Shown piece by piece: positions 9,096 through 60,138 of a stretch of DNA of 64,000 bases. The DNA comes from a virus (Duplodnaviria; Heunggongvirae; Uroviricota; Caudoviricetes), in the IMG/VR virus record IMGVR_UViG_3300018065_000012. The stretch is one strand, 5' to 3'. The translations under genes and the position numbers were made by a program. The notes under the pieces were generated by a model. That model was given only the letters and a program-made list of their open reading frames with translations, had not been told where the DNA came from and ran no database searches. Every line of letters starts with the position of its first letter. Positions within the stretch are counted from its first letter, which is position 1.

Positions 9096-10114
9096 ACGTC
9101 TTGAATGAGTTGAAAACAATCAACGCGTTACTTGCCCGTCGGGTAACGGGGGCAAGCGAACGTGAAAAGAATCAAAAGCTGGATAAGATTTATCGTAGCT
9201 TGCCCAACGCAGGATTCTCCGAAAAGATAACTAACAAGGATATTGTTGAATTCACATTGCGAGACGAAAGGGTTGAAATATTACCAGCGACGTACAAACT
9301 CAAAAAGTATCCTGTTGTTTTCTTTTGGGATAGAGACAGACTTCCAAGACAAGATACGCCATTTGATCTCAAGGTTGGTTTCACAGATAAAGAAGGCAAG
9401 GCAAACGGTACTTTTGTTGTCAAGCTTACTTACCGCAACGGAAAGGTTGAACTTTGTCAAGCTTGGAAAGGTGGAGTTGGGCGTTTGCTCAAAGCAATCC
9501 GTGACGAGTATTTTTTCTTTGACGCACGCGCTGGAGAATCGCATTATATAAAACAGAAAAAACTTCAGAATCTTGTAGAAGGATTTTTGAACGTTGTCGC
9601 GAGAAATTTCAACGCATGGTATGGCAGGCAAATTGATAAATACGAAGCGCTGGAAAAGGCAATCGACGGATTACCAAAAACGGAAGTTCAAGAGTTTTTC
9701 AAGAAGAAAAGACAAATTCGAAAGGATGGCTTTTACGTTTATAGATTGTCGGAGAAGGAACTCATCAATGATTTCATGACAGATTTCAATAAGGTTGTTT
9801 CCGGAATCCGTCACGACAAAAGTAAGAATCCATTGAAGTATCAAGCGATGAATTTGGTTCCTTCTGAATTTCACAACATATTGGATAGATTGAGCGACAG
9901 GCAATTGAAAGAATTGATCCCTTCTTTGGTCAAGCACCGGCCAATGAAGATTATTTTGGATAGCAAATCGACGCCACAAGGCCGTCAGACGGGTAGCGCT
10001 TTTTATGTGAACGTTAACCCAAAAGATATGATGGGCGAAGGGAAAGCTTCTGTAAGGCATAAGGGAAACGTGTTTGCTTACCGCCGATGGGACGAATATT
10101 CAAAGGCAATGTAA
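9092..10114 (+). CDS. hypothetical 340-aa protein with weak family-like N-terminal helix (MNVLNELKTINALLARR)
   Basis: Long ORF, ATGA overlap upstream. Confidence 0.6.
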   Translation: MNVLNELKTINALLARRVTGASEREKNQKLDKIYRSLPNAGFSEKITNKDIVEFTLRDERVEILPATYKLKKYPVVFFWDRDRLPRQDTPFDLKVGFTDKEGKANGTFVVKLTYRNGKVELCQAWKGGVGRLLKAIRDEYFFFDARAGESHYIKQKKLQNLVEGFLNVVARNFNAWYGRQIDKYEALEKAIDGLPKTEVQEFFKKKRQIRKDGFYVYRLSEKELINDFMTDFNKVVSGIRHDKSKNPLKYQAMNLVPSEFHNILDRLSDRQLKELIPSLVKHRPMKIILDSKSTPQGRQTGSAFYVNVNPKDMMGEGKASVRHKGNVFAYRRWDEYSKAM

Positions 10115-14559: not shown

Positions 14560-14942
14560 AACAGATTGCAAAACAGCTTTTGAAAATTGCCGCTATACTC
14601 GTCAATCCCTTAAATGGAATGAGAAAACAAAAAGCAACAAAAGTTGTAAACAAATTGATGGCAGACGCATCAAAAGGGCTTTTCAGCGATTCATATTGGA
14701 GAGGCGTAAAACAAGTTTGGGAAGCGTTAGACAGAGCAGGAATCCCTTATACGATTATGAGCAACAAGTATACACAGGATAAAGTAACAGGCAACCCCAA
14801 TGCGAAAGAATGGAAGTTTGAAATAGAGTTTGCAAACGAGCGCGGACGCCTTCATAAGCTTTATGGGCGGTTGGTTGCAAGTGGCGCTGGTCCAATTGAT
14901 GATCCTCTTGAACGCTATGATATCACGGTGTATGCTTCATGA
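14556..14942 (+). CDS. small protein, ELLK-AK family (MKQIAKQLLKIAAILVNP)
   Basis: Internal ATG of ORF 14526..14942. Confidence 0.6.
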   Translation: MKQIAKQLLKIAAILVNPLNGMRKQKATKVVNKLMADASKGLFSDSYWRGVKQVWEALDRAGIPYTIMSNKYTQDKVTGNPNAKEWKFEIEFANERGRLHKLYGRLVASGAGPIDDPLERYDITVYAS

Positions 14943-16441
14943 ATGTTTCATCTGAACTTCAAAAAATAGCAACGCTTCTCGTAACTGCGACTCTCGCAGA
15001 AAAAGAATTTGAACGCTTTCTCAAAGTGTTTTTGAAAGGTACGCCTTTTGCGCACAAGGCGTATGCCGTAGGCGGTTACGTCCGTGATGAATTGTTAGGT
15101 TTGGAATCAAAAGACCTTGACGTTGTTGTAGAGATGAAGGGTGGCGCTGAAAAACTTACTAAGTTGATTAAGAAGGAATTGGGCAAAGCAGTTTCTACTC
15201 CGAGGCAATTGGGCGCTGGTTATCCTATTTGGCAGATTGCTTTCAAAGAAGATATTTCTTATGAGGGTAAGACGTATAAAACCAAAGGCGCGGTTCTTGA
15301 ATTTGCCGATACGATGACTGAGAGTTTTCCTGACCCAGAAAGCAGACAACGACAAACTGAATATGGAACGCTTGAGCAGGACGTTAAACGCCGAGATTTT
15401 ACCGTCAACATGTTGATGAAAGATTTGACAAACGGTGAAATCAAAGACTTGACCGGAGTGAGTAAGAATGATTTGAAGAAAGGAATCTTGCGCGGTCATC
15501 CCGGCGTTTCGCTTGATAAGATTTTCATGAACGACCCGTTGCGAATGATACGTTTGATCCGGTTCCAAACGAAATACGGATGGGACATTCCAATGGATGT
15601 GTTACGCATTGTCAAACGCAATGCAAAACGAATTCAAATTGTGTCGCCTGAACGCATTATGGGAGAACTTGAAAAGGTAATGAAATTGGGCAAACTGAAC
15701 AAAGCAATTCGATTAATGAAGATAACAGGTTTACTCAAATATGTACTTCCAGAAGTGGATGAGCTTACAAAAGTCAAGCAGTCGCCGAAGCAACATGCAG
15801 AAGGAAACGTATTCAAACATACTATGATGGTATTGAAAAACGCAAAGCCAACGGTAGAGGCTCAGATGGCGGCGTTGTTGCATGACGTTGGAAAGGCAAA
15901 GACGCAGCAGATATTTGGAAACGGGATTTCATTCCATGGCCATGAAAAAGTGTCTGGTGAAATCGCGGAAGCAATTTTGCGTAGGCTGAAGTTTGACAGT
16001 CGTACGATCAATACTGTTCGCAAATTGGTTGAAAATCATATGCGGCCACATCGAATTGATGATATGATAAAATCAAACAAGGGCGATTCAGCGCGTGTGC
16101 AGAAAGTATTGCGTCGCTTTGTCCGCAAGATTGGTGATGAATCTATTGATGCGTTGATTGACTTGGCAGAGGCGGATGCGATCGGAAAGTTGCCGCCGCA
16201 GAATTATGCTCCCAATCTGAGGCGCATGATTGATGATATCAGAAAGTCTCCGTTACCCGTTTCAAAAAAGCCAGTGTTGGACGGCAAAGAAATTATGCAA
16301 ATACTGAACGTGAAGCCGGGACCGCTTGTTGGGGACGTGTCGCGGTTTCTGATTGAGTTGGAAGAGGACTATGCCGCAAAAGGAAAAGCGTTGAAGAAGG
16401 ACGAAGCAAAGAAACAGGTGCTTGAAAGATATAGTCGTTGA
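14939..16441 (+). CDS. cca: CCA-adding tRNA nucleotidyltransferase with HD domain, fused to a ~28-aa N-terminal family helix (MNVSSELQKIATLLVTATLAEKEFERFLK)
   Basis: AYAVGGYVRDELLG...DLDVVV head-domain motifs of Pol-beta NTase/CCA enzymes; HD region downstream. Confidence 0.75.
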   Translation: MNVSSELQKIATLLVTATLAEKEFERFLKVFLKGTPFAHKAYAVGGYVRDELLGLESKDLDVVVEMKGGAEKLTKLIKKELGKAVSTPRQLGAGYPIWQIAFKEDISYEGKTYKTKGAVLEFADTMTESFPDPESRQRQTEYGTLEQDVKRRDFTVNMLMKDLTNGEIKDLTGVSKNDLKKGILRGHPGVSLDKIFMNDPLRMIRLIRFQTKYGWDIPMDVLRIVKRNAKRIQIVSPERIMGELEKVMKLGKLNKAIRLMKITGLLKYVLPEVDELTKVKQSPKQHAEGNVFKHTMMVLKNAKPTVEAQMAALLHDVGKAKTQQIFGNGISFHGHEKVSGEIAEAILRRLKFDSRTINTVRKLVENHMRPHRIDDMIKSNKGDSARVQKVLRRFVRKIGDESIDALIDLAEADAIGKLPPQNYAPNLRRMIDDIRKSPLPVSKKPVLDGKEIMQILNVKPGPLVGDVSRFLIELEEDYAAKGKALKKDEAKKQVLERYSR

Positions 16442-16786
16442 ATGGTTGTCAATTTCACATCTTGTATCAGGAACGTTTTCAAAGGCATTCATTATGCCAT
16501 TGTTGACGTCGAAGGCACAAAAGGAATCTGTGTTCAAATTCCTGAAAACCATCCATTTCGGCAGCGCGATTCTTCTTTGATTTCTCAGCGCAAGCTTGTG
16601 GCCGAAGGGAATTTTCCACAGTTATCTGCGACGGGATATTGGTTCTGTTTTGAGTGCGATTCTGAATTGCATGATGAGCAGCTTACACAATTATGCCGTG
16701 AAATGATCAATCACGTTCGTCGGCCCTATTGGACGATGTTTAAGCGTGGTATCCGGCGGTTTCTCGCCAATCTAAAACACCTCTAA
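16442..16786 (+). CDS. hypothetical protein
   Basis: 114-aa ORF; weak SD. Confidence 0.4.
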   Translation: MVVNFTSCIRNVFKGIHYAIVDVEGTKGICVQIPENHPFRQRDSSLISQRKLVAEGNFPQLSATGYWFCFECDSELHDEQLTQLCREMINHVRRPYWTMFKRGIRRFLANLKHL

Positions 16787-16820
16787 AATTCACACCGAAT
16801 TTGCAAAAAATCAGCAAAAC

Positions 16821-16842
16821 TTGCTTCTCGGGTTGTATAATA
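16821..16842 (+). promoter_or_regulatory. promoter-like motif TTGCTTCTCGGGTTGTATAATA (site A of GGTTGTATAATA family)
   Basis: Intergenic; TATAAT at 16836-16841; recurs at 23313, 31691, 34431, 59774. Confidence 0.5.
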
Positions 16843-16893
16843 AAATGTAAATGATATGTCCTTTGTTCTGTGTGATTTGCCGAGGAGGAAAAT

Positions 16894-17601
16894 ATGATAA
16901 TGCCCCGCCAGACTCCGTTCCCGGAAGAAATTGATCGGGCTTTGGAATTTGACCCATTGGATACGGTTGAAAAGATCACGGGCAGCTTGGACACTCCCGA
17001 AGGAAGAGGTTTGAGCTTTATTGCTGTAGCGACTTCAGCCGCTGAAAAGCGAAAGCTGCTGTCCAGAAACGATGATTTGTATTACGGCATCAAACTCAAA
17101 GACGCCGAAAGGGTTCTTGAGTCAATGGGTTTTCAGGTTGTCTACAAAGAAGAATTCGAGTGCGAGAACGTACAAGAAGTTTTGGTTGCCAGTTGGCAAG
17201 CGCAGCTTGGAATTCTTTTCGTTTATTCTTCCTTTGCTGAAAGTGGTTTCAACGGGGGAAATTTTTACGCTGCGTGGAAGCCAAACGATTTGATGACATA
17301 TCATTCTTGTACTTCTTCCGGCCAGTTTTACAGGCCAGCAGATATGTCTTGGGAAGATGCGGATGAATACATAAAGAAGAATCCACTTTGGATTGGCGAT
17401 TGGCATTTTGAAGCCGCAAGACATCATATTGAAAAACTCCTCCGAAGGGGTGAATTTGTAATTCAGCGTCCGGAAAAGCAGCGGATTTGGTTGGTCAATT
17501 ATTCAACGGCGCGGATTTTGGAGTATGGTCAATTCGATGCGGTGATTGATGCTAACCTTGCAAAACTGCCTGACGAAGTTAGAAAGGCATTGTGCGTATG
17601 A
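16894..17601 (+). CDS. hypothetical 235-aa protein
   Basis: ggagga SD. Confidence 0.6.
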   Translation: MIMPRQTPFPEEIDRALEFDPLDTVEKITGSLDTPEGRGLSFIAVATSAAEKRKLLSRNDDLYYGIKLKDAERVLESMGFQVVYKEEFECENVQEVLVASWQAQLGILFVYSSFAESGFNGGNFYAAWKPNDLMTYHSCTSSGQFYRPADMSWEDADEYIKKNPLWIGDWHFEAARHHIEKLLRRGEFVIQRPEKQRIWLVNYSTARILEYGQFDAVIDANLAKLPDEVRKALCV

Positions 17602-18107
17602 AAGACGCGGAAAAGAAAATAAACCGTCATTCGATTTACCTCACGGAAAAAGCCGAGGCGCTTGAAAAGGCGATTGATTTTTTCCTTGGAGCAAAGGGTA
17701 AGAAATCTGCAACCATGCGAAGGCTTGTTTTTCTCGCTCAGATTGATTTTTGGAATTGGGAAATAGATGAGTTGATTTTTTCATTTAGCAACTTCAAGAA
17801 GCGGAAGGAAGTATGGGAATCACGGGCGAGTCTTGAAGACGGTTTGAAAGAACACGGTTTTCTTTTACGCGATAAAGCCAAGTGGAAAGCGCGGTGGTGT
17901 TTTTTTGAAAGTGAATATTTGAAGCAGCGCAAGTTGGAACTCAAAGCCCCTACTGAGGCTTTGGAGCGCGTTATTGAGAAATGGAATCGTCTTTTGGGTT
18001 TGTTGGAAAAGAACGTACTTGTTGATGAAGAGTACGTGAAACAGTACAAAGTAAATGCGAAATGCAATTTGACTTGTTTTAGAAAAGAAAGGCCGTTGGT
18101 TAAGTGA
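17598..18107 (+). CDS. hypothetical protein
   Basis: ATG in overlap with upstream stop. Confidence 0.55.
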   Translation: MKDAEKKINRHSIYLTEKAEALEKAIDFFLGAKGKKSATMRRLVFLAQIDFWNWEIDELIFSFSNFKKRKEVWESRASLEDGLKEHGFLLRDKAKWKARWCFFESEYLKQRKLELKAPTEALERVIEKWNRLLGLLEKNVLVDEEYVKQYKVNAKCNLTCFRKERPLVK

Positions 18108-18412
18108 TTTGCGTACGTTGCGGATATTGTTGTAAAGAACTCTGCGTTATCATCGTTGATGATCCAGAGAAAGGTTTGGACGTTAGTAGTCCTGACTGCC
18201 GGGACAATCTTGTCTATCACGGGGGAAATGGAAAACGTTGCAAGCATTTGAGGGGAGACAAAGCCGGAGAATACAGTTGCGCGATTCACGATGAACCGTG
18301 GTACAAAGATACGCCATGCTATTCTCACAGTCAAATAGAACGTTCGCCCGATGATGTTTGTCGCATGGGTGAATACATTTTGAGACAAGAAAATGCAAGT
18401 GCGAATACATAA
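18104..18412 (+). CDS. YkgJ-like CxxCxxCC metal-chelating domain protein (VICVRCGYCC)
   Basis: CxxCGxCC signature; GTG start. Confidence 0.5.
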   Translation: MICVRCGYCCKELCVIIVDDPEKGLDVSSPDCRDNLVYHGGNGKRCKHLRGDKAGEYSCAIHDEPWYKDTPCYSHSQIERSPDDVCRMGEYILRQENASANT

Positions 18413-18605
18413 AAGAGTTTGTGTGAGATGCCATCTGTGTCAAGTTGCTTCAAACAACTTGACAAAAATCAAATACAAAACCTTTTGGATTTGCAAAGTT
18501 CTTAAAGGCGCTTGGGTTGATGAAGAAACTTCGGTGCCGGAAAGATGTCCATACAGGCTCGAACATACGGTAATGGGGGAATCATATGGGGCGCGGTATA
18601 GTTAA
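18393..18605 (+). CDS. possible small Cys-rich protein
   Basis: 70-aa ORF, CxxC pairs. Confidence 0.35.
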   Translation: MQVRIHKRVCVRCHLCQVASNNLTKIKYKTFWICKVLKGAWVDEETSVPERCPYRLEHTVMGESYGARYS

Positions 18606-18936
18606 GTTCACGCATGAAGGCGTTGACTATTTTTGCGAATGGTCAACGGTTGTTGACGCTCCCGTTACCTATTTGCTGACGCTGAAGGAACTGAAAGCGT
18701 ATTACAAAGAGGAATATGGCCGTTACGGGATGCGTGGTTTCAAACTTCGCATGGAACGTGTTATGGAAAAAGGAACGTCCTTTCATATGGACGCTTCTAT
18801 GGAAGAAACTATCAGTTGTAATCGTGCTGGCGATAAAGAAAAACGTTTGACGGCGAAGCAGATCATCAAGAAATATCGTTTGGATATTTTGGAGGAGATG
18901 AATGCCAAAGAAAGGGGACTACCAGATTCCATTTGA
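18586..18936 (+). CDS. hypothetical protein
   Basis: gggggaa SD. Confidence 0.55.
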   Translation: MGRGIVKFTHEGVDYFCEWSTVVDAPVTYLLTLKELKAYYKEEYGRYGMRGFKLRMERVMEKGTSFHMDASMEETISCNRAGDKEKRLTAKQIIKKYRLDILEEMNAKERGLPDSI

Positions 18937-19240
18937 CGAAGATGGAAACCAAATGCACTATGCTGATACGTCCATTTGGAAAGCGAAGGAATGGCGGGAC
19001 AATTGCAAGTTTGAAGATTGCTTGGAGTATATGACTTATTGTCGTGGAAGGAGCGCGACGTATTTCGAGTTTCAGGGAGTTGATATGGATAGGAAGTACA
19101 CGATGTTCTTGAAGGAGTTTGATGCAATAGTCAAAAAGCTTGATAACGGAATGTTGAGCGGCACTTGGACGTTTATCAAGCGTGGGACAAATTACGGGGT
19201 CAAGTTGGTTGAACCGTTTTATTTAACGGAGATTAATTAA
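18902..19240 (+). CDS. hypothetical protein
   Basis: ggagg SD 6 nt upstream. Confidence 0.55.
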   Translation: MPKKGDYQIPFDEDGNQMHYADTSIWKAKEWRDNCKFEDCLEYMTYCRGRSATYFEFQGVDMDRKYTMFLKEFDAIVKKLDNGMLSGTWTFIKRGTNYGVKLVEPFYLTEIN

Positions 19241-19242
19241 CG

Positions 19243-19353
19243 ATGAGAAATCAGGAACCGAGAGAAGACGACGCAGTTGCTCTTGGATTGGGAAGCTTTA
19301 TTGCTATTGGAGTGGTGGCTGGACTTGCCGCCAAAGCGTTGCGAGATTATTGA
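19243..19353 (+). CDS. possible 36-aa hydrophobic peptide (MRNQEPREDDAVALGLGSFIAIGVVAGLAAKALRDY)
   Basis: Unlisted ORF in gap; single TM-like segment. Confidence 0.3.
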   Translation: MRNQEPREDDAVALGLGSFIAIGVVAGLAAKALRDY

Positions 19354-19397
19354 AGGAGGGTTGCTGCTCTGGACTTCCCGCAGGAAGGTAGGTTGAT

Positions 19398-19685
19398 ATG
19401 TCTTTGAAAGAAACAGCAAACTACATTGTCGTTCGTGAAGTGCGTTCAGACATGATTGGCGGAGCAGAGGGTGACGTCAAAACTGCTAATCCGAATTATC
19501 AATTCGCGGTTCAGCAGGTTCTCGTCAAAGAGAACGACGGCAGCAAATGGGAAGCCATTCGTTTCACCTATTACAAGGATGGAAATATGGTTGCCCGGCC
19601 CCCTGTGTTCGACCACGAAGTTGTTCTGAAGACTATCGGAATGGCTGTAAGCGCTGGCATTCTCGTCGGCCTCAAAATAGTTTGA
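19398..19685 (+). CDS. hypothetical protein with C-terminal hydrophobic tail
   Basis: 95-aa ORF. Confidence 0.5.
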   Translation: MSLKETANYIVVREVRSDMIGGAEGDVKTANPNYQFAVQQVLVKENDGSKWEAIRFTYYKDGNMVARPPVFDHEVVLKTIGMAVSAGILVGLKIV

Positions 19686-19760
19686 GGACGTTGGAACGCC
19701 GGATTGACTGACTTTTGAAGCGGATTGTTTGGAGCAGCAACCTGAATTTGAAGGTGACAA

Positions 19761-20648
19761 ATGAAAGTTGATTTGCGCAAGTTAGCTGATAAGAAATTGA
19801 TCCATCCACCGGGGTTTGTGATCAGCAATACTCATTACTTGACGATGATGGGTAGCATCGCTTATGGATGTCATTCTGATTCAAGTGATGTGGACCTTTA
19901 CGGGTTTTGTATCCCGCCCAAGCATATGATCTTTCCGCACATTGCTGGGTATATTCCCAATTTTGGAACGCAGCCGGAGAAATTCAATCAGTGGCAAGAG
20001 CACGGGGTCAAAGACAAAGAGCAAAATACAGAGTTTGACTTTCAGATTTTCAGTATCATCAAGTACTTCAATTTGTTGATGAACAATAACCCAAACGTCA
20101 TTGACTCTTTGTTTGTGCCGCAACGCTGTATCTTGCATTGTACGCAGGTTGGAAGCATCGTGCGGGAGAAACGGAAAATATTCTTGCACAAAGGCAGCTG
20201 GCACCGCTTCAAAAACTACGCTGGCTCGCAGCTCAAGAAGGCGAAGAACAAAGAACCAGAAGGCAAGCGGAAAGAACTCGTAGACAAATACGGATTTGAT
20301 ACGAAGTTTTGTTACAACATCGTCAGGCTGCTTGACGAAATCGAACAGATCATGGCGGAAGGCGATATCAACCTTGAACGCAATCGCGAGCAGCTCAAGG
20401 AAATTCGCCGTGGCGAGTGGTCGTTAGAGCGGATTGAAGAATGGTATGCGACAAAAGAAAAGGATTTGGAGTCGCTTTACACACGTTCCAAGCTTCAGCA
20501 GTTGCCGGATGAAGAGGCAATCAAAGAATTGCTCATGGACTGTCTCGAACATCATTACGGGTCGTTGTCTGAGGCAGTGGTTTCAGAAGGCAAATTGATG
20601 CGTTACATGCGCAGGATTAAGGAACTTTGTGAAAAAGCGGGTGCGTGA
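19761..20648 (+). CDS. Pol-beta superfamily nucleotidyltransferase-fold protein
   Basis: GS-x10-DVDL motif (MMGSIAYGCHSDSSDVDLYGF). Confidence 0.55.
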   Translation: MKVDLRKLADKKLIHPPGFVISNTHYLTMMGSIAYGCHSDSSDVDLYGFCIPPKHMIFPHIAGYIPNFGTQPEKFNQWQEHGVKDKEQNTEFDFQIFSIIKYFNLLMNNNPNVIDSLFVPQRCILHCTQVGSIVREKRKIFLHKGSWHRFKNYAGSQLKKAKNKEPEGKRKELVDKYGFDTKFCYNIVRLLDEIEQIMAEGDINLERNREQLKEIRRGEWSLERIEEWYATKEKDLESLYTRSKLQQLPDEEAIKELLMDCLEHHYGSLSEAVVSEGKLMRYMRRIKELCEKAGA

Positions 20649-20848
20649 TGAGTGAAATGAAATGTGCTGAATGCGGAGAAGTTACTCCAGCGAATGCGCT
20701 TTTTGAAGACTATGTTTGTCAAGAGTGTGGTTTTCGTCTTTGTGCTACATGTTACGAATATCCTGACAATCCTAAAAAATGGGATGAAGATTTAACGCTT
20801 TGTCCATGTTGTGTTGAAGAAATTAAAAGGAAGGTACATGATGAATAG
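20645..20848 (+). CDS. small zinc-ribbon protein (CAEC...CQEC...CATC...CPCC)
   Basis: Four Cys pairs in 67 aa. Confidence 0.5.
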   Translation: MMSEMKCAECGEVTPANALFEDYVCQECGFRLCATCYEYPDNPKKWDEDLTLCPCCVEEIKRKVHDE

Positions 20849-21146
20849 GAAAATAAGAACAGGTTCGCTCCATGACGTGAAGTGGATTGTTGAGCGCGTA
20901 GAAAGAGCATGTCCCAAAAAGGAGGCTCTTTCTATTTTGAACGAGCTTCGATCTGAAATCGACGAGCACATCGAAAGGGTTGGGGAAAAGAAAATCCGAA
21001 AAGGCGCACCAATGCATTTTCGAGCCGACCCTCAATGGCCCGCTGCCGCATGCAGTTATTTCGTTAATGGAGATAACGCGACAACGGTAAGAAAGAACGT
21101 GACATGCAAAAAGTGTCTCCGTTTGTTTGCAGAAGGAAGGGCATGA
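20838..21146 (+). CDS. hypothetical protein
   Basis: aaggaagg SD; ORF table start is TTG further upstream. Confidence 0.5.
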   Translation: MMNRKIRTGSLHDVKWIVERVERACPKKEALSILNELRSEIDEHIERVGEKKIRKGAPMHFRADPQWPAAACSYFVNGDNATTVRKNVTCKKCLRLFAEGRA

Positions 21147-21592
21147 TGGAAGTCATTCACAACAAACCAATTGAGTATTTCGGGATGATGGTACAACCGA
21201 ATGAATACACCATACTCCATTGCGGAGAGTTTTGCGATGACCCATGGAATTTGGCGGTTGATCTTGATACCGTTTATTACCGGCTTTCCAGCAAGGAAGC
21301 AGAAAAGCATTACAAGGATTTGATTGCTTATTACTCAAACGATAATGAAAAGATATGGCCCAACGGAGATGGAATCGTTGCTTTTGGTTTGTACCATCTT
21401 GAAGGCGGTGAAACTCTTTTGGTTTGCATTGATCATGATGGTGGAGTTTTTGCTGATGAACCGTTTGAAGGGGCTGGAATTCCAGCGCCAATAAACGCGG
21501 CATTCCTTTGCCACGCTTCCAAACCGAAAGCAGAGGACGATGAATCGGGATTTTTCAAAGACCTAATCCATTTATTCAAAGGTTGGGAGTGA
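21143..21592 (+). CDS. hypothetical protein
   Basis: aaggaagg SD. Confidence 0.5.
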   Translation: MMEVIHNKPIEYFGMMVQPNEYTILHCGEFCDDPWNLAVDLDTVYYRLSSKEAEKHYKDLIAYYSNDNEKIWPNGDGIVAFGLYHLEGGETLLVCIDHDGGVFADEPFEGAGIPAPINAAFLCHASKPKAEDDESGFFKDLIHLFKGWE

Positions 21593-21611
21593 ACGATGTC
21601 GGTGAGGCTCG

Positions 21612-21860
21612 TTGAAGCAATGTGTCATGGTTGGGCTTTTGGGCCTATCAAAAGGGCTACTGCGCCTACTTCGCGGCATTCTCTTTGGGCGAAGAAACCA
21701 AACTGTGATGAATGGCAAGTTCATAAAGTTCCCGCCGATGCTGGCAGGTGGCTGGACGCTTTACTTGATGAAGCGGGAGTACCGGATTGATCTGTCGACG
21801 GTGCAGGAGGCGCGAAACGTTCGACGCCAACTCAACCGGATGAAATTGTTGGAGAACTGA
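21612..21860 (+). CDS. hypothetical small protein (alternative frame 21596..21790 cannot be excluded)
   Basis: Ends immediately before next gene. Confidence 0.3.
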   Translation: MKQCVMVGLLGLSKGLLRLLRGILFGRRNQTVMNGKFIKFPPMLAGGWTLYLMKREYRIDLSTVQEARNVRRQLNRMKLLEN

Positions 21861-21861
21861 A

Positions 21862-22110
21862 ATGGAAGACCCTTGTAATATGAAAGAAACGTTAGAAGCA
21901 TACGCATCGGCAATTGAAAATGGGTTAGTCGCTCCGGAAGAAGTTGAAAAGGTTCTGAAAGCAGACTTCTCAATGGAAGCAATAGAAAGGCGTAAAAGAT
22001 TTCGCACGCGAGTCAAAAAGGAAATGAAGCATACGCAAAACATTATATTGCCCGATGGTTCTATAATCGCTGTAAAGACAAACAAGAAACCAGAAGGAAG
22101 CGAAGAATGA
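21862..22110 (+). CDS. hypothetical protein
   Basis: ggag SD. Confidence 0.5.
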   Translation: MEDPCNMKETLEAYASAIENGLVAPEEVEKVLKADFSMEAIERRKRFRTRVKKEMKHTQNIILPDGSIIAVKTNKKPEGSEE

Positions 22111-22265
22111 AGTATTCAGTTTCTGTCAATGTCAAAATGATAGTCAACATTGATGCCGAGAATCCAACCGAAGCAGAAGACAAGGCTATTGATTCTGTTG
22201 TAGGAAAAAGAATTGAAGTCAAAAGAGAGGATACTTCAGCGATATGGATGAAACAAGAAAACTGA
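22107..22265 (+). CDS. possible 52-aa protein
   Basis: ATGA overlap with upstream stop. Confidence 0.35.
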   Translation: MKYSVSVNVKMIVNIDAENPTEAEDKAIDSVVGKRIEVKREDTSAIWMKQEN

Positions 22266-22693
22266 GTGCAGTATTGTTGATAGTGGTTTCGTCGTGCTCT
22301 TTAATCGAAGCACGCGGGAGAGAAAAATCATTGTCCGTTGAAGAACATACTCAACGGGCTGAAAAATATCTTGAGAAAAAGAATTGGTGGAAAACACTTT
22401 GGCATTACAACAAAGCGTGGGAAAAACTTTTGAAGGTTGAAAAGAAAGATGAAGCTGAAACGCTTGTGAAGAAAATGAACAAAGTATTTTGGCAAGCAAT
22501 TGAATACAAGATTGAAAACAAGGAGATAACAAATCAAACAGGCGCATTGACGTTCTTGAACAGCAGGATTGCAAAGCGTCAAAAGAAAAAGCTTGACTGT
22601 AAACAGGAATTGGAGATAAAGAAAAAGCTTGAAAACAAAGAGAATGAAAGCGCATTGGAACAGGTCAAGAAAATCTTGAAGGAACTGGAGTGA
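22244..22693 (+). CDS. putative lipoprotein with coiled-coil body (signal peptide + lipobox VVSSC)
   Basis: N-terminal K/R then hydrophobic run then VSSC. Confidence 0.5.
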   Translation: MDETRKLSAVLLIVVSSCSLIEARGREKSLSVEEHTQRAEKYLEKKNWWKTLWHYNKAWEKLLKVEKKDEAETLVKKMNKVFWQAIEYKIENKEITNQTGALTFLNSRIAKRQKKKLDCKQELEIKKKLENKENESALEQVKKILKELE

Positions 22694-23304
22694 TGTTTTT
22701 CATTGGCGACATTCACGGCGAATTTAATACCTACGAAGGTATTATCAAGAAATTGCCGTATTCAATTCAGCTTGGAGATATGGGCGTTGGTTTCGATAGG
22801 CGTGGCGAAGAAATTCTTGCTACACCGTCGCCTCATAAATTCATTCGCGGGAATCACGATGATCCGACGGGTTGCGAAACGTATCCGAATTACTTGGGTA
22901 ATTTTGGGAGCGCCCAACTCAATAAAGAAGTCTGGTTTTTCGTGAGCGGTGCTTATTCCATTGACAAAGACCGGCGTATTCCCGGCGTGAGTTGGTGGAA
23001 AGGCGAAGAGCTTACCTACAGTCAGTTTTCAGATTGCCTTGAGCTTTACGAGGCCAATAGGCCAGATTTCGTTGCTACGCACGAATGCCCGGCGAAAGTA
23101 CTTGGACAGATACGGGCATGTACTTCAGACCATCTGAATCCAACTACGAAGGCGTTTCAGATGATGTTTGAAATTCATCAACCGAAGCTTTGGGTATTTG
23201 CGCATCATCATTATGACAAGGAATTTGATTTTCACGGAACGCACTTCGTTTTGGTGGGGACCAACAGTGTTTTTGATTCGAGCAAATTTTTCACGCAAAA
23301 ATGA
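22690..23304 (+). CDS. calcineurin-like metallophosphoesterase / Ser-Thr phosphatase-like
   Basis: GDIHG, GDMG, RGNHD motifs. Confidence 0.65.
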   Translation: MMFFIGDIHGEFNTYEGIIKKLPYSIQLGDMGVGFDRRGEEILATPSPHKFIRGNHDDPTGCETYPNYLGNFGSAQLNKEVWFFVSGAYSIDKDRRIPGVSWWKGEELTYSQFSDCLELYEANRPDFVATHECPAKVLGQIRACTSDHLNPTTKAFQMMFEIHQPKLWVFAHHHYDKEFDFHGTHFVLVGTNSVFDSSKFFTQK

Positions 23305-23312
23305 GTCGGGAA

Positions 23313-23325
23313 GGTTGTATAATAA
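23313..23325 (+). promoter_or_regulatory. promoter-like motif GGTTGTATAATAA (site C) only 5 nt from the ATG of 23329
   Basis: Same core as 16831, 31699. Confidence 0.4.
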
Positions 23326-23328
23326 AAC

Positions 23329-23973
23329 ATGAACAGGCTACAAAAAGTAGAGACCAAATTGATTCAGCGAAAGGAAGCGTTGCTTCGTTTACAGATCGAA
23401 AACGAGACGTTGGACAAGCAGATCGACGAGCATATACGAAGAATTTCGGATAATATGATCCAGCTTGAGCTTGGGCAAGAGGCTCTGCAATTTCTTGAGG
23501 ATGTCGCAAACTCAAGACGCGGTGAGATGAAAAGCCAAATTGAAAACGTCGTGTCTGAAGCGTTGTCGCTTATTTATGATAACGACTACGGCGTTGAGCT
23601 TGTGTATGATGTTAAGAATAATCGCAGCTTTACAGAAATCAAGCTTTTGAAAAAGACATCGCAAGGAGTTGTACGGCGCACGATGAATGGATTTGGCGGC
23701 GGTGTTAGCGATACGATTTCTGTTCCTTTGCGGTTGCTTGTTTTGTTGGCTTCGCGGCAGACTGACCGTGTTTGTGTTTTGGATGAGCCGTGGAAGCATA
23801 TGGATTTGACTGATCGGATCGATCGTGCTGCTGAATTTATTCATGAAATAGCGCACCGGCTTGATTTGCAAACGGTAATGTGCAGCCATCATGAAGCAAT
23901 GCAGGAAGCGGCTGATGTAGCTTGGCGTTTCTCGGACGACAACGGTACGACTATCGTTGAAAAGATTAAATAG
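23329..23973 (+). CDS. SMC/Rad50/SbcC-like ABC ATPase C-terminal half (coiled coil + signature-like GFGGGVSD + Walker B VLDEP + H-loop SHH); no Walker A
   Basis: Motif order typical of Rad50 C-lobe. Confidence 0.45.
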   Translation: MNRLQKVETKLIQRKEALLRLQIENETLDKQIDEHIRRISDNMIQLELGQEALQFLEDVANSRRGEMKSQIENVVSEALSLIYDNDYGVELVYDVKNNRSFTEIKLLKKTSQGVVRRTMNGFGGGVSDTISVPLRLLVLLASRQTDRVCVLDEPWKHMDLTDRIDRAAEFIHEIAHRLDLQTVMCSHHEAMQEAADVAWRFSDDNGTTIVEKIK

Positions 23974-23984
23974 GGAGATTGAGA

Positions 23985-24479
23985 ATGGCAATCAGGACTG
24001 CTTCTGTGGATGACAAAACAGCAACGCTGATCGACAATGGTGCGCGGCTGGATCAAACGGCGAAGAATGTTGCGTTGGAATTGCAAGGCACAAAAGCAAT
24101 TCTTTGTAATAAGGCCGACTTTGAAGCTGACGAGAAAAGTGTTCGGTTGGAAGGCACAAAAGCTTGTGCGGTGGTATCCAAAAGAATTGCTTATGAATTG
24201 AAGTTGCCTAACGATGAAGCGCAGAAGGAATTTGAAGGTGAACTGTCAAAAGGCAAATTTGCAAACGTCGTCAAGGCAGAAGTGAAGGTCAATGTTTCTA
24301 CAGAGCGGCTTGGGGAGCTTGTCATGCTACTCGATCAAAAGGGTTTTACCTTTGGAAAGAAATTCAAGGTTGATCCGAAGGGTTTCAAAGCATATTGCAA
24401 AGAAGTAGATTCTCCGGAAGTGCTCGCAAATAACGTGAGGGAAGAGGAAACAATGAGCGTGAAATTTGAAATTGAATGA
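23985..24479 (+). CDS. hypothetical protein
   Basis: agggag SD 7 nt upstream. Confidence 0.55.
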   Translation: MAIRTASVDDKTATLIDNGARLDQTAKNVALELQGTKAILCNKADFEADEKSVRLEGTKACAVVSKRIAYELKLPNDEAQKEFEGELSKGKFANVVKAEVKVNVSTERLGELVMLLDQKGFTFGKKFKVDPKGFKAYCKEVDSPEVLANNVREEETMSVKFEIE

Positions 24480-27479: not shown

Positions 27480-27507
27480 ATTTTTTTCTTGATTTTCTTC
27501 CCGAAAA

Positions 27508-27530
27508 CCATATAATAATTTTATATTTGC
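27508..27530 (+). promoter_or_regulatory. AT-rich element CCATATAATAATTTTATATTT (late-motif family member)
   Basis: Shares TTTTATATTT core with 39071, 49135, 55766, 59586, 62758. Confidence 0.4.
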
Positions 27531-31681: not shown

Positions 31682-31710
31682 TTGAAAAAATATCTCTGGG
31701 TTGTATAATA
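31682..31710 (+). promoter_or_regulatory. sigma70-like promoter TTGAAA-16nt-TATAAT containing GGTTGTATAATA (site B)
   Basis: Intergenic 31659..31878. Confidence 0.55.
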
Positions 31711-31878
31711 GGACGAGTGGGGCAAGAAAGGAGTCGCCTATGAATTGAAGTGGTGCGTCACTGGCCTTACAGGTGACACGAGTTTTGTTAGCAAACGCAT
31801 TCGTCAATGTTGACAGATACAAAAGCTAACGAATCCGCGACCGATAACAAGGTTGCAAGTGAGCGAAAGGAACAAATC

Positions 31879-32868
31879 ATGTCTGCGAATAAATTTACTG
31901 TTGAAAAACTTGAATCAAAAGTCAACGAAGCAGCTCATATCGTTTTGGGCATTCCCAATTTTATTATCAAAGCCTCAGATGAAGAGCGGAAGAAACTTGC
32001 CGCAAAGCACATCTGGGACAAACTTGGCCTGCTTGGAGTTTACAGGGATGCTGAATCGCATGAGTTGTTAATGGTTGATTGTCCAGAGGGAGAAGCGAGA
32101 CGTGTTTTCTGCGAAACTGGCGGCTCTCCATATCTGCCTGCGGTTCGATTCAGACGTGTCTGGGCTATCCTTACAGAAAGAACCGCGCCCACGACAGACG
32201 TTGCTTATAAGGAATTGAGCAGCGGCTTTGAAAAGTTCAGTCAGGGCTTGAAGGAAACGCTCCGTACGCCGGGACAAATGAAGGACAAGGAACTTGTTGA
32301 AGCTTACGGTCCTGAATGTGAGGTCTCAATCATTGACGAGCTTAAAAGGCGAAGCAATGATCGTCCTTTTGTTGTTTTCAACAACAGAGAAGATGCCGTT
32401 GTGGACGTTGAAACGACGCTCAGAATGTTGCGGGAAGCTCGCCGTGGCCGTACAATGCCTGTCAATTACAAAGTCGCCGACAGTTTGAAGCGGCTTTATC
32501 GTGCTGGCGAATTTCCTGCGATGTTTTATTTTCACTGTCCTTTCCACAAAGATACATTGCTTGTGGATGGATTCTGTGACAAGTCAAAGCAGGTCTGGGA
32601 AGGAATTGATTACGAATGTATGCAGTTTGCCCGCATTGCTCTTGAATTGGAGGAGATCACAAGCAGGACTCCTGATATTCGCCAATTCATTGGTCTTGCT
32701 GTTCAAGGCGGTTTGGAAGGTTTGCGGTTGAACTATCCTCATGTGGCGCTCGTCTTTGATGAGCGGAAGGAAGTTGACTCTCTGCCAAATCTGAAAGTGA
32801 GAATGTCGGATACATCAGGGCGTCAATATGCGGACCCGATGAACCCGAACCAGAAACAGCGTTTCTAA
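31879..32868 (+). CDS. hypothetical 330-aa protein (cluster member)
   Basis: aaggaa SD 6 nt upstream of ATG 31879. Confidence 0.55.
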   Translation: MSANKFTVEKLESKVNEAAHIVLGIPNFIIKASDEERKKLAAKHIWDKLGLLGVYRDAESHELLMVDCPEGEARRVFCETGGSPYLPAVRFRRVWAILTERTAPTTDVAYKELSSGFEKFSQGLKETLRTPGQMKDKELVEAYGPECEVSIIDELKRRSNDRPFVVFNNREDAVVDVETTLRMLREARRGRTMPVNYKVADSLKRLYRAGEFPAMFYFHCPFHKDTLLVDGFCDKSKQVWEGIDYECMQFARIALELEEITSRTPDIRQFIGLAVQGGLEGLRLNYPHVALVFDERKEVDSLPNLKVRMSDTSGRQYADPMNPNQKQRF

Positions 32869-32934
32869 ATCATAAATGTTTGGCCCGTGGGAGGAAACTC
32901 CCACGGGCTGAGCACTTTCTGAAAGGATATAAAA

Positions 32935-34017
32935 ATGGATTACGTAAAAGAACTTGCCAAAGGTGGTTATGTTCATGAAATGGAACATGCCAGCTTCAAG
33001 GCAAGATTGATGAAGGCAGAGCGTCTTGAAGGTGAACAGGTTCACGGTCTCCCTCCCGGTCAACCCATTCCCGTTTTCCCAATTGCCGCATTGCCCGGCG
33101 CACCGGATTCTTGGGTACGCGAAGCAGGGGCGTATGTTTGTCCTATTGATGTCGGATGGGGATTGTGGTTTGATTGGACGATGAATGATGCAATGAACAC
33201 GACAATTGTTCCCAGCGTCAAAGGAATGAATCCTATCACCGGACGCAAGCTTGAAGGTTTGGGGTTGGAGCAGTATGCTGACAAGTGTCCTGTTCATGAC
33301 AAGCCTTTTTCGCATGGCTATTTTTGTGAGGAATGCAACTACTCTTGGCCACCGCAAAATTACGTTTGTCATCCCAATACGCTTTGGTGGGATGGATTCA
33401 GGCAACCGGATGGAACGGTACGGCAATTCTTTTTCACCGATGAAGACAAGCGAGATATTGCCAGTGCGGTAATTGGAAAAGAAAACACCGTACCAGCTTT
33501 TGGTTTTGCATTTTACAAGCCCAAAGTTTCAAGAACGCCACCGCAACGAATCACGCGGGGGTTTAGTGGCTATGGCGGGCAAATGGTTTACACGACAAGC
33601 AACTCGTCGGATCACCAGACGTACGATAGCAGTACAATCTGCCTTTCTGGGGATCAGCTGTCCAAAGGATTGATTGCCCCACAGAGTGTTAACGTTTTTC
33701 ATGTGTCTCAAATTGAAGAGAAGACAAGCGGAAAAGTGAATTGCAATGCTTTGCGGAGTAGTATCAGCGGCCAATCTGAAGCCCCAACGCCAAAGAAAAG
33801 CAAAGACGTCAGTGTTGGCGCAGGAGCGCAGATACGGCAAGATTTATCTCCTGATGATCTCGGGCTTGAAGGATGGCAGGACAAAGCCGGAGGCGTTATC
33901 CGGTTGTACTTCTGCTTTGAAGAGCAATTGAAGGAGATTATCGAAAAGGGTGGCGTCAAGGATTTCATGGTCGCATCGGATAAGGAAGGCTATCTGAAAG
34001 GACTTCCGAAAGGATAG
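32935..34017 (+). CDS. hypothetical 360-aa protein (Cys/His-containing)
   Basis: aaaggatataaaa SD-like. Confidence 0.55.
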   Translation: MDYVKELAKGGYVHEMEHASFKARLMKAERLEGEQVHGLPPGQPIPVFPIAALPGAPDSWVREAGAYVCPIDVGWGLWFDWTMNDAMNTTIVPSVKGMNPITGRKLEGLGLEQYADKCPVHDKPFSHGYFCEECNYSWPPQNYVCHPNTLWWDGFRQPDGTVRQFFFTDEDKRDIASAVIGKENTVPAFGFAFYKPKVSRTPPQRITRGFSGYGGQMVYTTSNSSDHQTYDSSTICLSGDQLSKGLIAPQSVNVFHVSQIEEKTSGKVNCNALRSSISGQSEAPTPKKSKDVSVGAGAQIRQDLSPDDLGLEGWQDKAGGVIRLYFCFEEQLKEIIEKGGVKDFMVASDKEGYLKGLPKG

Positions 34018-34356
34018 GTGAAAAGCATGAATATATTATGTCCAACGTGCCACGGGAAAGGGGCTATCCCCGACCCGAAGAATAATGGGATGGTAATGTG
34101 CTATTGCGGCCCAAACGGGGAAAGGTGTCCAGAGGTCATGTGCCAGACGTGCAGTGGCTCGGGATGGGTCGTAAAAGACGAGCGAGAGCGCCCGACCTGT
34201 CGACACCCGCTACCTCCGCCAAAGTGTCCCAAATGCAGAGATACGGGTCAAATTGCAAAATCAGATTGGAACGGTTGGCGAATGGAAAGATGTGATTGCG
34301 GAGCGGAACCACCGATTTTGCGCTTTTCATGCTCTTCATCGACTTCAGCTTTTTAA
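34018..34356 (+). CDS. DnaJ-type CxxCxGxG zinc-finger repeat protein
   Basis: CPTCHGKG, CQTCSGSG, CPKCRDTG repeats. Confidence 0.55.
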   Translation: MKSMNILCPTCHGKGAIPDPKNNGMVMCYCGPNGERCPEVMCQTCSGSGWVVKDERERPTCRHPLPPPKCPKCRDTGQIAKSDWNGWRMERCDCGAEPPILRFSCSSSTSAF

Positions 34357-34371
34357 GCTGGATTTTTCTAA

Positions 34372-34413
34372 ATATGGGTCGTGTCTAAAAAATGACGCGG
34401 CCCATATTTTTTT
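34372..34413 (+). terminator. rho-independent terminator (12-bp stem with two G-U pairs, 12-nt loop, T7 tract)
   Basis: atatgggtcgtg...cgcggcccatat ttttttt. Confidence 0.65.
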
Positions 34414-34421
34414 GATAAATT

Positions 34422-34442
34422 TTGCTTCTTCGATTGTATAAT
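34422..34442 (+). promoter_or_regulatory. promoter-like motif TTGCTTCTTCGATTGTATAAT (site D)
   Basis: Nearly identical architecture to 16821..16842. Confidence 0.5.
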
Positions 34443-34462
34443 TAGTAAACGCGGAGCATGTT

Positions 34463-34783
34463 ATGAAAAACCCATCGGAAGAAGATTGGTCAGAATTGTA
34501 TGGTCGGAAGTTCGAGCATAACGAAATCCGAGAGGCTTGTGACATCTTCGATCTTCTCCGGTATTTCTGCGAAGACAAACCAGAGATGCTTCCATCGTTC
34601 GTCCGAGAAAACATGAAACTGGGGCATCGTCTTTTCATGGCGATGAACCTCGAACCAGATGACCTTGGGGTTTTGGTCTTGAGAGAAGAGGACGATAGAA
34701 TAGTCCACGTCATCAAAGAACGCTGCGCAGAACTCAACAGACAAAAACAGGGACGCAGCAATATCATATTACCGGGAGAATGA
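34463..34783 (+). CDS. hypothetical protein
   Basis: gcggag SD. Confidence 0.55.
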   Translation: MKNPSEEDWSELYGRKFEHNEIREACDIFDLLRYFCEDKPEMLPSFVRENMKLGHRLFMAMNLEPDDLGVLVLREEDDRIVHVIKERCAELNRQKQGRSNIILPGE

Positions 34784-37914: not shown

Positions 37915-38544
37915 ATGGCTAAACGTCAATGGTATTGTTTTCTCCTTGACGGGCAAAAAACCCGTGGCTTGGAAGACCTTGAGTCTTTTTTGTTCAAGGA
38001 AATGGGGCGGGTGTTTGCAGATGATTTTTGCGATTTGATACTTCCCGGCGAACGGATGGCTGATGATTGTTTCAAGATTCAATCGGAAAGCTATTTTTTT
38101 GTCAAGTGTTCCAATTATCAAAACCATACAGATGAAATCAAAAACAGTTCTGTAGTTTCTATTGTTTTGCCTTCCGTAGAGAATCCTTCTCCAGTTGCGT
38201 ATTCTTCAATTTCGCGTTTTGAGCGGACTACAAAGTGGAGAATCAAAAGCAAAGATGATGTCTCCATAGGAGATTTGGTTCGAGTCAAAGCAGGGTTTTT
38301 GAAAAACCTGTTTGGGATTGTGGTAAAGAAGAATGGGAAAAACAGTTACAATGTTTTCTTTCGTCTTTATACGCGGCAATTTGTAGAAAGTTTGCGGCAA
38401 GTAAATTTAGAAATTTGCGATTGCCTTTGGAATTATGTTCAATTCCCAGTTGTGGAAAAAGGGAAAAAATTGACAGAAAACATGATTTCAACTGCAATTG
38501 ATATTGGAGATAGGAGAAAAATCTGTGCGAATAAAATACGTTAG
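37915..38544 (+). CDS. KOW-domain protein (NusG/Spt5-like; putative transcription antitermination/elongation factor)
   Basis: IGDLVRVKAGFLKNLFGIVVKKNGKNSYNVFF resembles KOW. Confidence 0.4.
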   Translation: MAKRQWYCFLLDGQKTRGLEDLESFLFKEMGRVFADDFCDLILPGERMADDCFKIQSESYFFVKCSNYQNHTDEIKNSSVVSIVLPSVENPSPVAYSSISRFERTTKWRIKSKDDVSIGDLVRVKAGFLKNLFGIVVKKNGKNSYNVFFRLYTRQFVESLRQVNLEICDCLWNYVQFPVVEKGKKLTENMISTAIDIGDRRKICANKIR

Positions 38545-39073
38545 CGACTACATTGAGCAACCGAGAAAGGTTCGTTCAAGCAGAAGTTTTCATTTTGACA
38601 TCGATGAAATTACAAGTAATCGCTCGATTTTTAATCTTTTGAACGATAAAGACAGGGACATTTTGTATCTCATTTTCGTTTCAAAAAAGAAGCAGAAGGA
38701 AGTACAGAGAGTCCTAAAGCGAAGTCAACCATCGCTTTGCTATGATATACGTCGTATCAGAGAACGGATTCAATTCATCGCATATTTGAGACAAGCCTTC
38801 GATATTTTCACAAACTTCATTGAGCAAAGAAATCGCAAGTATGATCCTCAAACAATAGAAATTCTTGTTTTGATGTATTACACCACTTCCTTTACCTTGA
38901 CCGCAAGGGTTCTTGGTCTGTCGCAAATCTTTGTAAGAGGCTTATTTGACAAAGCATTGCGACGAATGAGAAGGCTGAAACACTGGGAAGCATACGAGAT
39001 TTTTTCCGCAGTTCGACGTAACAAGAACAAGGTCAAGCGTGTCTACAAAGATCACACGGTCTGGAAATCGTAA
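38525..39073 (+). CDS. protein with two sigma-70 region-4-like HTH repeats; putative late-gene transcriptional activator
   Basis: DRDILYLIFVSKKKQKEVQRVLKRSQPSLCYDIRRIRERI and IEILVLMYYTTSFTLTARVLGLSQIFVRGLFDKALRRMRR. Confidence 0.45.
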   Translation: MRIKYVSDYIEQPRKVRSSRSFHFDIDEITSNRSIFNLLNDKDRDILYLIFVSKKKQKEVQRVLKRSQPSLCYDIRRIRERIQFIAYLRQAFDIFTNFIEQRNRKYDPQTIEILVLMYYTTSFTLTARVLGLSQIFVRGLFDKALRRMRRLKHWEAYEIFSAVRRNKNKVKRVYKDHTVWKS

Positions 39074-39090
39074 AAATTTTTTTATATTTT
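39071..39090 (+). promoter_or_regulatory. late-promoter-like element TAAAAATTTTTTTATATTTT
   Basis: Immediately downstream of the sigma-R4-like gene, upstream of head module. Confidence 0.45.
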
Positions 39091-39140
39091 AAGGTTATAT
39101 AGACAGGCTGTGGTTCTGACTTAGCGGAGGGAACGTACTC

Positions 39141-49134: not shown

Positions 49135-49157
49135 TGCAATAATTCTTTTATATTTTT
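49135..49157 (+). promoter_or_regulatory. late-promoter-like element TGCAATAATTCTTTTATATTTTT
   Basis: Intergenic, upstream of 49201. Confidence 0.45.
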
Positions 49158-49200
49158 CAATTGATAGAAAGCATTGTACATATATTCGGGAGAGCGACAG

Positions 49201-55660: not shown

Positions 55661-55765
55661 TTTTTGTATCTCCAAACTATCAGTGTAATTTATATGGAAA
55701 ACATATTGTTTTGTCCTTAAAACATTATACCACTGAGCGTTAAGTTTTTGTTAAAAAAACAAGAA

Positions 55766-59508: not shown

Positions 59509-59545
59509 AAGCGCAGTGTAGTTGTGGGACAACCAACCCAAGTAG

Positions 59546-59580: not shown

Positions 59581-59585
59581 CCACT

Positions 59586-59773: not shown

Positions 59774-59790
59774 TTGACGGGACTATAATA
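59774..59790 (+). promoter_or_regulatory. promoter-like motif TTGACGGGACTATAATA (site E)
   Basis: Relative of GGTTGTATAATA family, ~350 nt upstream of nrdD. Confidence 0.4.
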
Positions 59791-60138
59791 AATTATGAGC
59801 GCATGCTTCAACAGTTGGCGGATGCAAGTTGTCACTTCCTGTCCGGTAAATAACAAACAACAAACCAAGAAAACAAACCAAAACCGAGACAGATTTTTCA
59901 ATACAACAAGCATTGTTCCACTGTTCTTGCTTGGCGAAAAGTAATCTTGAAAAAGTTTGCGCTGGTAACTCTACGCATTGCGTTGGGTTACAAAAGCGGT
60001 TTGGAAAAACTTTCGCTCGAAGACGCATAATTCTTTTATAGTCGCCAATCTGATGAGTCCAAACTTTTGGCGAAGGCAATCAGATGATATTGAACACGCC
60101 AATTCACACCTGCAAATCATACGAGAAGGAGGAAGTTT

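Follow-up and report, generated by a model that had tools for sequence, protein, structure and literature searches.

Recurrent TATAAT promoter-like sites and a predicted leaderless gene start in an uncultivated huge phage

Genomic setting and the recurrent element

The window (the whole 64,000-nt stretch of phage DNA analysed here) has a G+C content of ~43%, and its plus strand carries all genes but one. In addition to the genes listed in Table 1, it encodes portal and head protease proteins, metallophosphoesterases, ParB-like nucleases and a glucosyltransferase-like protein. Ribosome-binding sites are strong in the window, for example GAGGAGG ahead of the gene at 16894, and the usual spacing to the ATG in this phage is ~5 to 9 nt. 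A near-identity DNA search of GenBank phages with positions 16000-24000 returned no match, as did a search of reference bacterial genomes with the terminase for a hint of the host. The terminase shares 32% identity with the counterpart encoded by an uncultured 485-kb phage. Because identical proteins occur on metagenome contigs that measure 182 kb and 338 kb, the window was assigned to an uncultivated huge phage whose genome is at least 338 kb long. From the same contig, 8.8 kb before the window and 9.5 kb after it were added, and the 82 kb examined in this way represents about a quarter of this genome. An Rfam scan of the window gave no match and a tRNA scan found no tRNA gene within it; beyond its end, 21 tRNA genes are clustered within 7 kb (L027 13468-20237, ~66.6-73.4 kb in window coordinates).

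Table 1. Promoter-like sites, terminator, second-motif copies and genes (window coordinates; spacers in nt)
Feature	Position	Strand	Sequence or description	Details
Site 1	16821..16842	+	TTGCTTCTCGGGTTG-TATAAT-A	-10 at 16836-16841
Site 2	23313..23331	+	GGTTG-TATAAT-AAAAC-ATG	-10 at 23318-23323; ATG at 23329
Additional promoter	27489..27516	+	TTGATT-16-TATAAT-A	47-nt gap before ParB-like gene
Site 3	31682..31710	+	TTGAAA-16-(GGGTTG)TATAAT-A	-10 at 31704-31709; 11/12 consensus matches
Intrinsic terminator	34370..34409	+	16 pairs, -25.5 kcal/mol, z = -8.7	closes 31807-34356 operon
Site 4	34412..34443	+	TTGATA (34412-34417)-19-(GATTG)TATAAT (34437-34442)-T	TTGCTTCT in spacer, 34422-34429
Minus-strand promoter	55724..55732	-	TGG-TATAAT-G	faces the only minus-strand gene (55660-55304)
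Site 5	59779..59797	+	GGGAC-TATAAT (59784-59789)-AAATT-ATG (59795)	TCAAAA 17 nt upstream; weakest member
tRNA-Met promoter	just past window end		TTGAAA-17-gtgTATAAT	TATAAT ends 30 nt before tRNA-Met
tRNA-Asp promoter	just past window end		TTGAAA-17-ttgTATAAC	ends 14 nt before tRNA-Asp
Second motif	39080		region 39075-39103	
Second motif	49146		region 49136-49175	
Second motif	55769		region 55762-55790	
Second motif	59596		region 59582-59625	
Second motif	60034		region 60023-60060	
Second motif	62768		region 62757-62795	
Second motif	~-947 relative to window start			L024
tRNA nucleotidyltransferase gene	14939-16441			
ATPase gene	23329-23973			downstream of site 2
Sigma region-4 protein gene	38525-39073	+	182 residues	Pfam Sigma70_r4 match, 26.7 bits
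Large terminase gene	41303-43117			
Major head protein gene	58645-59508			
nrdD (anaerobic ribonucleotide reductase)	starts 60139			

A sequence-only reading had proposed that one promoter-like element recurs at five intergenic sites (sites 1 to 5). Exact copies of GGTTGTATAATA were found at three of these (16831-16842, 23313-23324 and 31699-31710), all on the plus strand, and 100 dinucleotide-preserving shuffles yielded no copy in any. The remaining two sites proved inexact. At site 4, GATTGTATAATT starts at 34432, not 34431, ends at 34443 and has two mismatches to GGTTGTATAATA. Site 5 has only TATAATA in common, the register-equivalent 12-mer being GGGACTATAATA at 59779-59790 with 3 mismatches; TTGACG, which begins at the 59774 given for this site, is separated from TATAAT by 4 nt and does not represent a -35. 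All four copies of TTGTATAAT in the window are intergenic and on the plus (gene) strand, and with intergenic DNA making up 4.7% of the window the probability of this placement is about 5e-6. For TGTATAAT, a fifth copy was present at 29693 within a gene, and a literature search for this string returned primer sequences only.

The TATAAT hexamer occurs 32 times on both strands of the window vs 18.4 expected from shuffles, and avoidance of TATAAT inside genes was rejected on this count. Since 25 of the copies fall inside genes, TATAAT is by itself insufficient to define a promoter. On the plus strand, 6 of 13 copies are intergenic (P = 1.3e-5 by length), an excess of only ~3-fold over the A+T-rich intergenic composition. 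Bare TATAAT is not diagnostic; the signal is the extended motif together with its placement and conservation. Nine sites of the same class were recognised, seven in the window and two just beyond its end, and the site at 27489 had been absent from the earlier list.

Predicted promoter architecture and conservation in relatives

All seven window sites have a perfect TATAAT, including the A and T looked for at its second and sixth positions, and the two sites beyond the window carry TATAAT and TATAAC. The sites are intergenic and co-oriented with genes, including the one that precedes the sole minus-strand gene. A -35 near TTGACA at 16 to 18 nt was found as TTGAAA-16 (31682), TTGATT-16 (27489) and TTGAAA-17 (both tRNA promoters); textbook TTGAAA at 16 to 17 nt is thus carried by three sites. 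Site 3 had been read as a full sigma70-like promoter, and the fully canonical TTGAAA-16-TATAAT is indeed present at 31682-31709; an A/T-rich stretch lies upstream, and a leader of ~90 nt leads to the operon 31807-34356. At sites 1, 2 and 5 and the minus-strand site, at most 3 of 6 positions match TTGACA at 16 to 18 nt, with only GCAAAA, TCAAAA or ACAAAA at 16 to 17 nt and T- or A-tracts before. Site 1 has the weak -35-like GCAAAA at 16814-16819 with a 16-nt spacer and A/T tracts farther upstream, site 2 has GCAAAA at 23295-23300 with a 17-nt spacer, and the minus-strand promoter has a T-tract and ACAAAA upstream. These four sites appear mainly -10-dependent, probably aided by upstream A/T-rich DNA and by the bases next to the hexamer.

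The canonical extended -10 element is defined by TG at -15/-14 (PMC3917453). The TG stands at -14/-13, not as T at -15 and G at -14, in the GTGTATAAT site and all four TTGTATAAT sites, and the promoter scan flagged no canonical TG there. The earlier suggestion that recognition relies on an extended -10 holds in part: the conserved TG is shifted by one base toward the hexamer, but canonical TGGTATAAT occurs at the minus-strand promoter (55732-55724) and in the orthologs of relative L030, and only there. Because of this shift in the four TTGTATAAT sites, the route by which they would reach useful strength on the standard holoenzyme is one we only infer.

Sites 1 and 4 had also been singled out for a shared 21-nt architecture in which TTGCTT stands 9 nt from TATAAT, as a possible mark of special recognition. 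The identity TTGCTTCTnnGnTTGTATAAT between 16821 and 34422 is present, and the two sites agree at 18 of 21 nt, which is beyond chance. However, TTGCTT occurs at this distance in only two of the nine promoters, the site-4 orthologs in L001 and L030 lack it or have it at another distance, the spacing of TTGCTTCT is not kept in orthologous promoters, and site 4 has TTGATA 19 nt upstream of the hexamer besides TTGCTT. In IMG/VR, the 21-nt pattern was not found in related phages; its three matches, about the chance number, were ascribed to chance because none of the proteins on these contigs resembles those of the window. We recommend abandoning the TTGCTT idea.

The leaders downstream of the sites were predicted from the sequence. 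Transcription from site 1 is predicted to start at ~16848-16850, giving a leader of ~45 nt that includes the GAGGAGG ahead of gene 16894-17601. This gene had no relatives in IMG/VR, and a search of 5.8 billion proteins returned only the gene product itself. Site 1 is identical in the strain-level contigs L013-L015 and hence uninformative there; the tRNA nucleotidyltransferase gene was tried as an anchor for site 1 and rejected, as it is located elsewhere in the relatives' genomes. Site 4 had been placed right after a terminator, and the strong hairpin is indeed present, with a T-tail that reaches into the upstream part of the promoter. Its predicted leader of ~13 to 15 nt contains GGAG and precedes gene 34463-34783, and the transcription unit extends to the sigma region-4 gene. 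The minus-strand promoter has a leader of ~57 nt with GGAG within. The tRNA-Met and tRNA-Asp promoters open the 21-gene tRNA array, and since tRNA genes are not translated, a reading of the motif as a translation signal was ruled out.

Two collinear relatives were used for comparison: L001, whose terminase is 70% identical, and L030, with 66% identity in the ATPase. At sites 2, 3 and 4, a TATAAT promoter is present at the equivalent place in these relatives of 50 to 70% protein identity. For site 4, the window, L001 and L030 have in common the order of terminator hairpin, promoter, short GGAG leader and same gene; the promoter reads TTGATA-19-gattgTATAAT in the window, TTGATA-20-aaacaTATAAT in L001 (3125-3156) and aatTGGTATAAT, with TGGTATAAT at 12156, in L030. 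Site 3 corresponds to tagTATAATa in L001 (-10 at 350-355) and to TTGATT-16-TGGTATAAT behind a terminator in L030 (9778-9805). Site 2 corresponds in L030 to gtTGGTATAAT, followed by a leader of ~52 nt with a ribosome-binding site. Thus, the hexamer and its position are kept and the flanks are lineage-specific, GGTTG in the window and TTGG in L030. Perfect TATAAT recurs in relatives of 40 to 57% G+C. In a family survey of 53 intergenic TATAAT sites, for which the "coding" control was contaminated because the crude ORF caller absorbs leaderless sites, G stood at -13 in 75%. The proposal of a recurrent promoter-like element is therefore borne out by position, orientation, the conserved promoter place in relatives and the two further copies at tRNA genes.

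Leaderless geometry before the ATPase gene

Promoters of leaderless mRNAs are known from Deinococcus and Actinobacteria and from lambda cI transcribed from PRM. At site 2, a leaderless or very short-leader transcript had been suggested, and the succession of TATAAT, AAAAC and ATG supports it, with the same geometry before the ATPase gene in five distant relatives. The -10 lies 5 nt from the start codon, no usable ribosome-binding site is present (the nearest G-rich run, GGGAAGG, is 14 nt from the ATG), and the ATPase aligns to its family profile from residue 1, as expected for a true gene start. TATAAT-5 nt-ATG precedes the orthologous ATPase gene in L051, L077, L047 and L073, and TATAGT-5 nt-ATG in L062. 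The relatives with this layout have 47 to 50% protein identity, so the arrangement before the same gene is kept down to ~47%. In L030, L032, L044 and L039, a promoter and a leader with a ribosome-binding site are found before the ATPase ortholog instead. Family-wide, the ATG follows 5 to 6 nt after the hexamer at 13 of the 53 intergenic TATAAT sites vs ~1.6 expected. A leaderless mRNA from site 2 is thus a supported prediction.

A -10 box that immediately precedes the start codon is an accepted signature of leaderless genes (PMC3160421, PMC4007540), reported as a TA-like signal ~10 to 12 nt before the start (PMC3160421) and, in Deinococcus, as a -10 that leaderless genes have immediately ahead of them, without a conserved -35 (PMC4007540). 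Site 2 and also site 5 resemble these promoters in having TATAAT-5 nt-ATG without a ribosome-binding site. They differ in their setting: most genes of this phage have a strong GGAGG, so leaderless starts are exceptional here (2 to 3 candidates in 82 kb). At site 5, the open reading frame behind the leaderless geometry has only 49 codons and no homolog was found for it; for this reason, the site may alternatively start a plain leader of ~350 nt for nrdD. Conservation of TATAAT-5 nt-ATG is a hint that leaderless mRNAs are readily translated in the hosts of this clade, and may help to narrow the host. A related arrangement, TATAGT-6 nt-ATG at 16430-16444, was observed ahead of gene 16442-16786, the ATG of which overlaps the stop codon of the preceding gene; the start may be either of the leaderless type or a case of plain translational coupling.

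Recognition of the sites and the second intergenic motif

A second intergenic motif, AATTTTTT(T/G)ATATT, i.e., AATT(T/C)TTT(T/G)ATATT, often with TGCAT before it, is co-oriented with genes and heads the packaging, head and nrdD genes. TAGA or TAGGAGG usually follows it by 11 to 14 nt. It was also found in relatives L001-L008, L021, L023, L030, L032, L049 and L069, which range from 40 to 64% G+C. Its GATATT resembles the SPO1 late -10. This motif is probably a phage-specific, perhaps late, promoter class. In the crowded control region 59509-60138, which separates the major head gene from nrdD, a strong terminator (59546-59574, -20.2 kcal/mol), a second motif, the TATAAT site and another second motif follow in this order; the presence of both motif types suggests that nrdD is expressed from both promoter classes.

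The site-4 transcription unit includes the sigma region-4 gene. Among homologs of its product, 5 of 10 match Sigma70_r4 (best E = 3e-9); the protein has a second helix-turn-helix-like segment, and a PDB profile search with it gave a marginal match to a sigma-D fragment only. The gene is conserved in all collinear relatives, and in every motif-bearing relative a region-4 gene of ~185 residues lies directly upstream of the second motif on the terminase side. The protein is a candidate late-gene activator or sigma-like factor, with AATTTTTTTATATT DNA as its candidate target. A cascade that would run from the TATAAT promoters through the region-4 protein to the second motif is a reasonable model.

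Many phages use extended -10 and UP-like primary-sigma promoters for early genes. The TATAAT sites resemble these promoters in the perfect hexamer, in TTGAAA, TTGATT or TTGATA at 16 to 19 nt at some sites, in the upstream A/T tracts and in following terminators and standing ahead of operons and tRNA genes. The minus-strand site and the L030 orthologs carry TGGTATAAT, in agreement with the extended -10 (TGnTATAAT), but in the four TTGTATAAT sites TG abuts the hexamer, and three or four sites have no recognisable -35. We consider it probable that GGTTGTATAATA is the -10 region of promoters for the primary sigma (sigma-70/sigma-A) holoenzyme, most likely that of the host.

According to one alternative, which we regard as unlikely, the promoters are read with a phage-encoded factor (a sigma factor, a polymerase or a T4 MotA/AsiA-style appropriation) that recognises the GGTTG or TTGCTTCT flanks instead of a -35. 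The identity of the 12-mer at three sites goes well past the needs of a -10 hexamer, sites 1 and 4 are alike over most of 21 nt, several sites have no -35, and among the phage's own proteins is one with a sigma region-4 domain, which is kept in relatives. In addition, a phage-encoded factor would also explain the invariance of TATAAT in relatives of 40 to 57% G+C. However, TTGCTTCT is confined to two of the nine sites, 9 nt from the hexamer and at a spacing not kept in orthologs, and the flanks vary by lineage while TATAAT is constant (TTGGTATAATG in L030, tag or aca before TATAAT in L001). The textbook -35 at three sites also argues against such a factor, and the region-4 gene, located past site 4 with the second motif immediately following it, makes that motif the better candidate target. 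T4 middle promoters have a MotA box with a TGCTT core, centred at -30 and 11 to 13 nt from a sigma-70 -10, and work by MotA/AsiA appropriation. Compared with this consensus, sites 1 and 4 are similar in having TTGCTT upstream of a good -10 without a -35, but differ in the 9-nt spacing, in being only two and in the loss or shift of the box in orthologs. No MotA or AsiA homolog was matched among the ~60 larger window proteins scanned against PHROGs or Pfam.

Less probable still is a role of the element other than that of a promoter: protein binding to DNA, a signal at the RNA level or, for site 2, ribosome binding to a G-rich run with an unusually long A/T spacer before the ATG. G-rich runs (GGAAGG, GGTGAG, GGAG) do lie 12 to 15 nt before the ATG at the leaderless-type sites, and two ParB-like proteins are encoded nearby. 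Against this, at sites 1 and 3 the start codons, each with its own GGAGG, are 52 and 97 nt away from the 12-mer, related sites precede tRNA genes, the motif has no palindrome, ribosome-binding sites in this phage usually sit ~5 to 9 nt from the ATG, and the invariant part is exactly TATAAT, not just any A/T-rich spacer. Slightly lower still is the probability we give to the 12-mer identity being a relic of recent promoter-cassette duplication, or chance, with no function beyond TATAAT. In favour of this reading, site 1 is similar to site 4 across 21 nt and to site 3 across ~17 nt, and the GGTTG flank is kept in neither L001 nor L030. Yet the likeness ends abruptly at the core promoter with unrelated flanking DNA, G at -13 is enriched family-wide, and GGGTGTATAATAGGAC in L047 is nearly the site-3 sequence although the ATPase is only 47% identical.

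Under our preferred explanation, promoters of the host's primary holoenzyme, a phage factor is not needed at the TATAAT sites, although one may take part. Neither a protein with sigma region 2 nor a subunit of RNA polymerase was detected within the 82 kb covered out of at least 338 kb. From the directly established sequence, position, orientation and conservation of the sites, we infer the polymerase, the start sites and the timing. The hexamer would be the main determinant, with probable added affinity from G at -13 (often TG at -14/-13) and from A/T-rich tracts at ~-40 to -50. A -35 (TTGAAA, TTGATT or TTGATA) would contribute at some sites and is nearly missing at others, so several sites would rely mainly on the -10. 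Transcription would start 6 to 8 nt past the hexamer, at site 2 and perhaps at site 5 on the A of the ATG to give a leaderless mRNA, and the remaining sites would yield leaders of 13 to 90 nt with a normal ribosome-binding site. The TATAAT promoters head blocks for nucleotide metabolism, DNA modification and unknown functions, the tRNA array and the unit of the region-4 protein, which may then switch on the second promoter class at the packaging and head genes.

More tentatively, and with a probability we put on the low side, the sites may belong to a mainly -10-dependent class spread through a large clade of uncultivated huge phages from sediment and hypersaline metagenomes. Such a class would have G or TG against TATAAT and frequent leaderless mRNAs, and would form a first tier before the second motif read by the region-4 protein. 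The feature itself is real and promoter-like; its elements are of the textbook kind, the set of members is new, and the conserved leaderless promoter is its most interesting detail. The sites provide a usable transcription map for part of the phage, with operon starts and stops, the genes that are probably on the host polymerase and one well-supported predicted leaderless gene. Their value lies in annotation and in the contrast with the second, phage-specific motif.

A further observation concerns the operon 31807-34356 on the plus strand, which is flanked by the window's most canonical promoter and its strongest terminator. Its three genes, of 353, 360 and 112 residues, are kept in L001 and L030 and had no Pfam or PHROG match except for a zinc-ribbon-like hint in the third. 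The leader of this operon gave no match in Rfam. Within 31724-31760 it contains a conserved ribosome-binding site and a minimal upstream ORF, ATG AAT TGA, with equivalents in the corresponding stretches of L001 (ATG TAA, within ~381-400) and L030 (ATG ACC TGA, within ~9850-9885), and the conserved GTGGTGCG comes after this ORF. This arrangement may exert translational control of the start-stop kind or reflect a structured leader.
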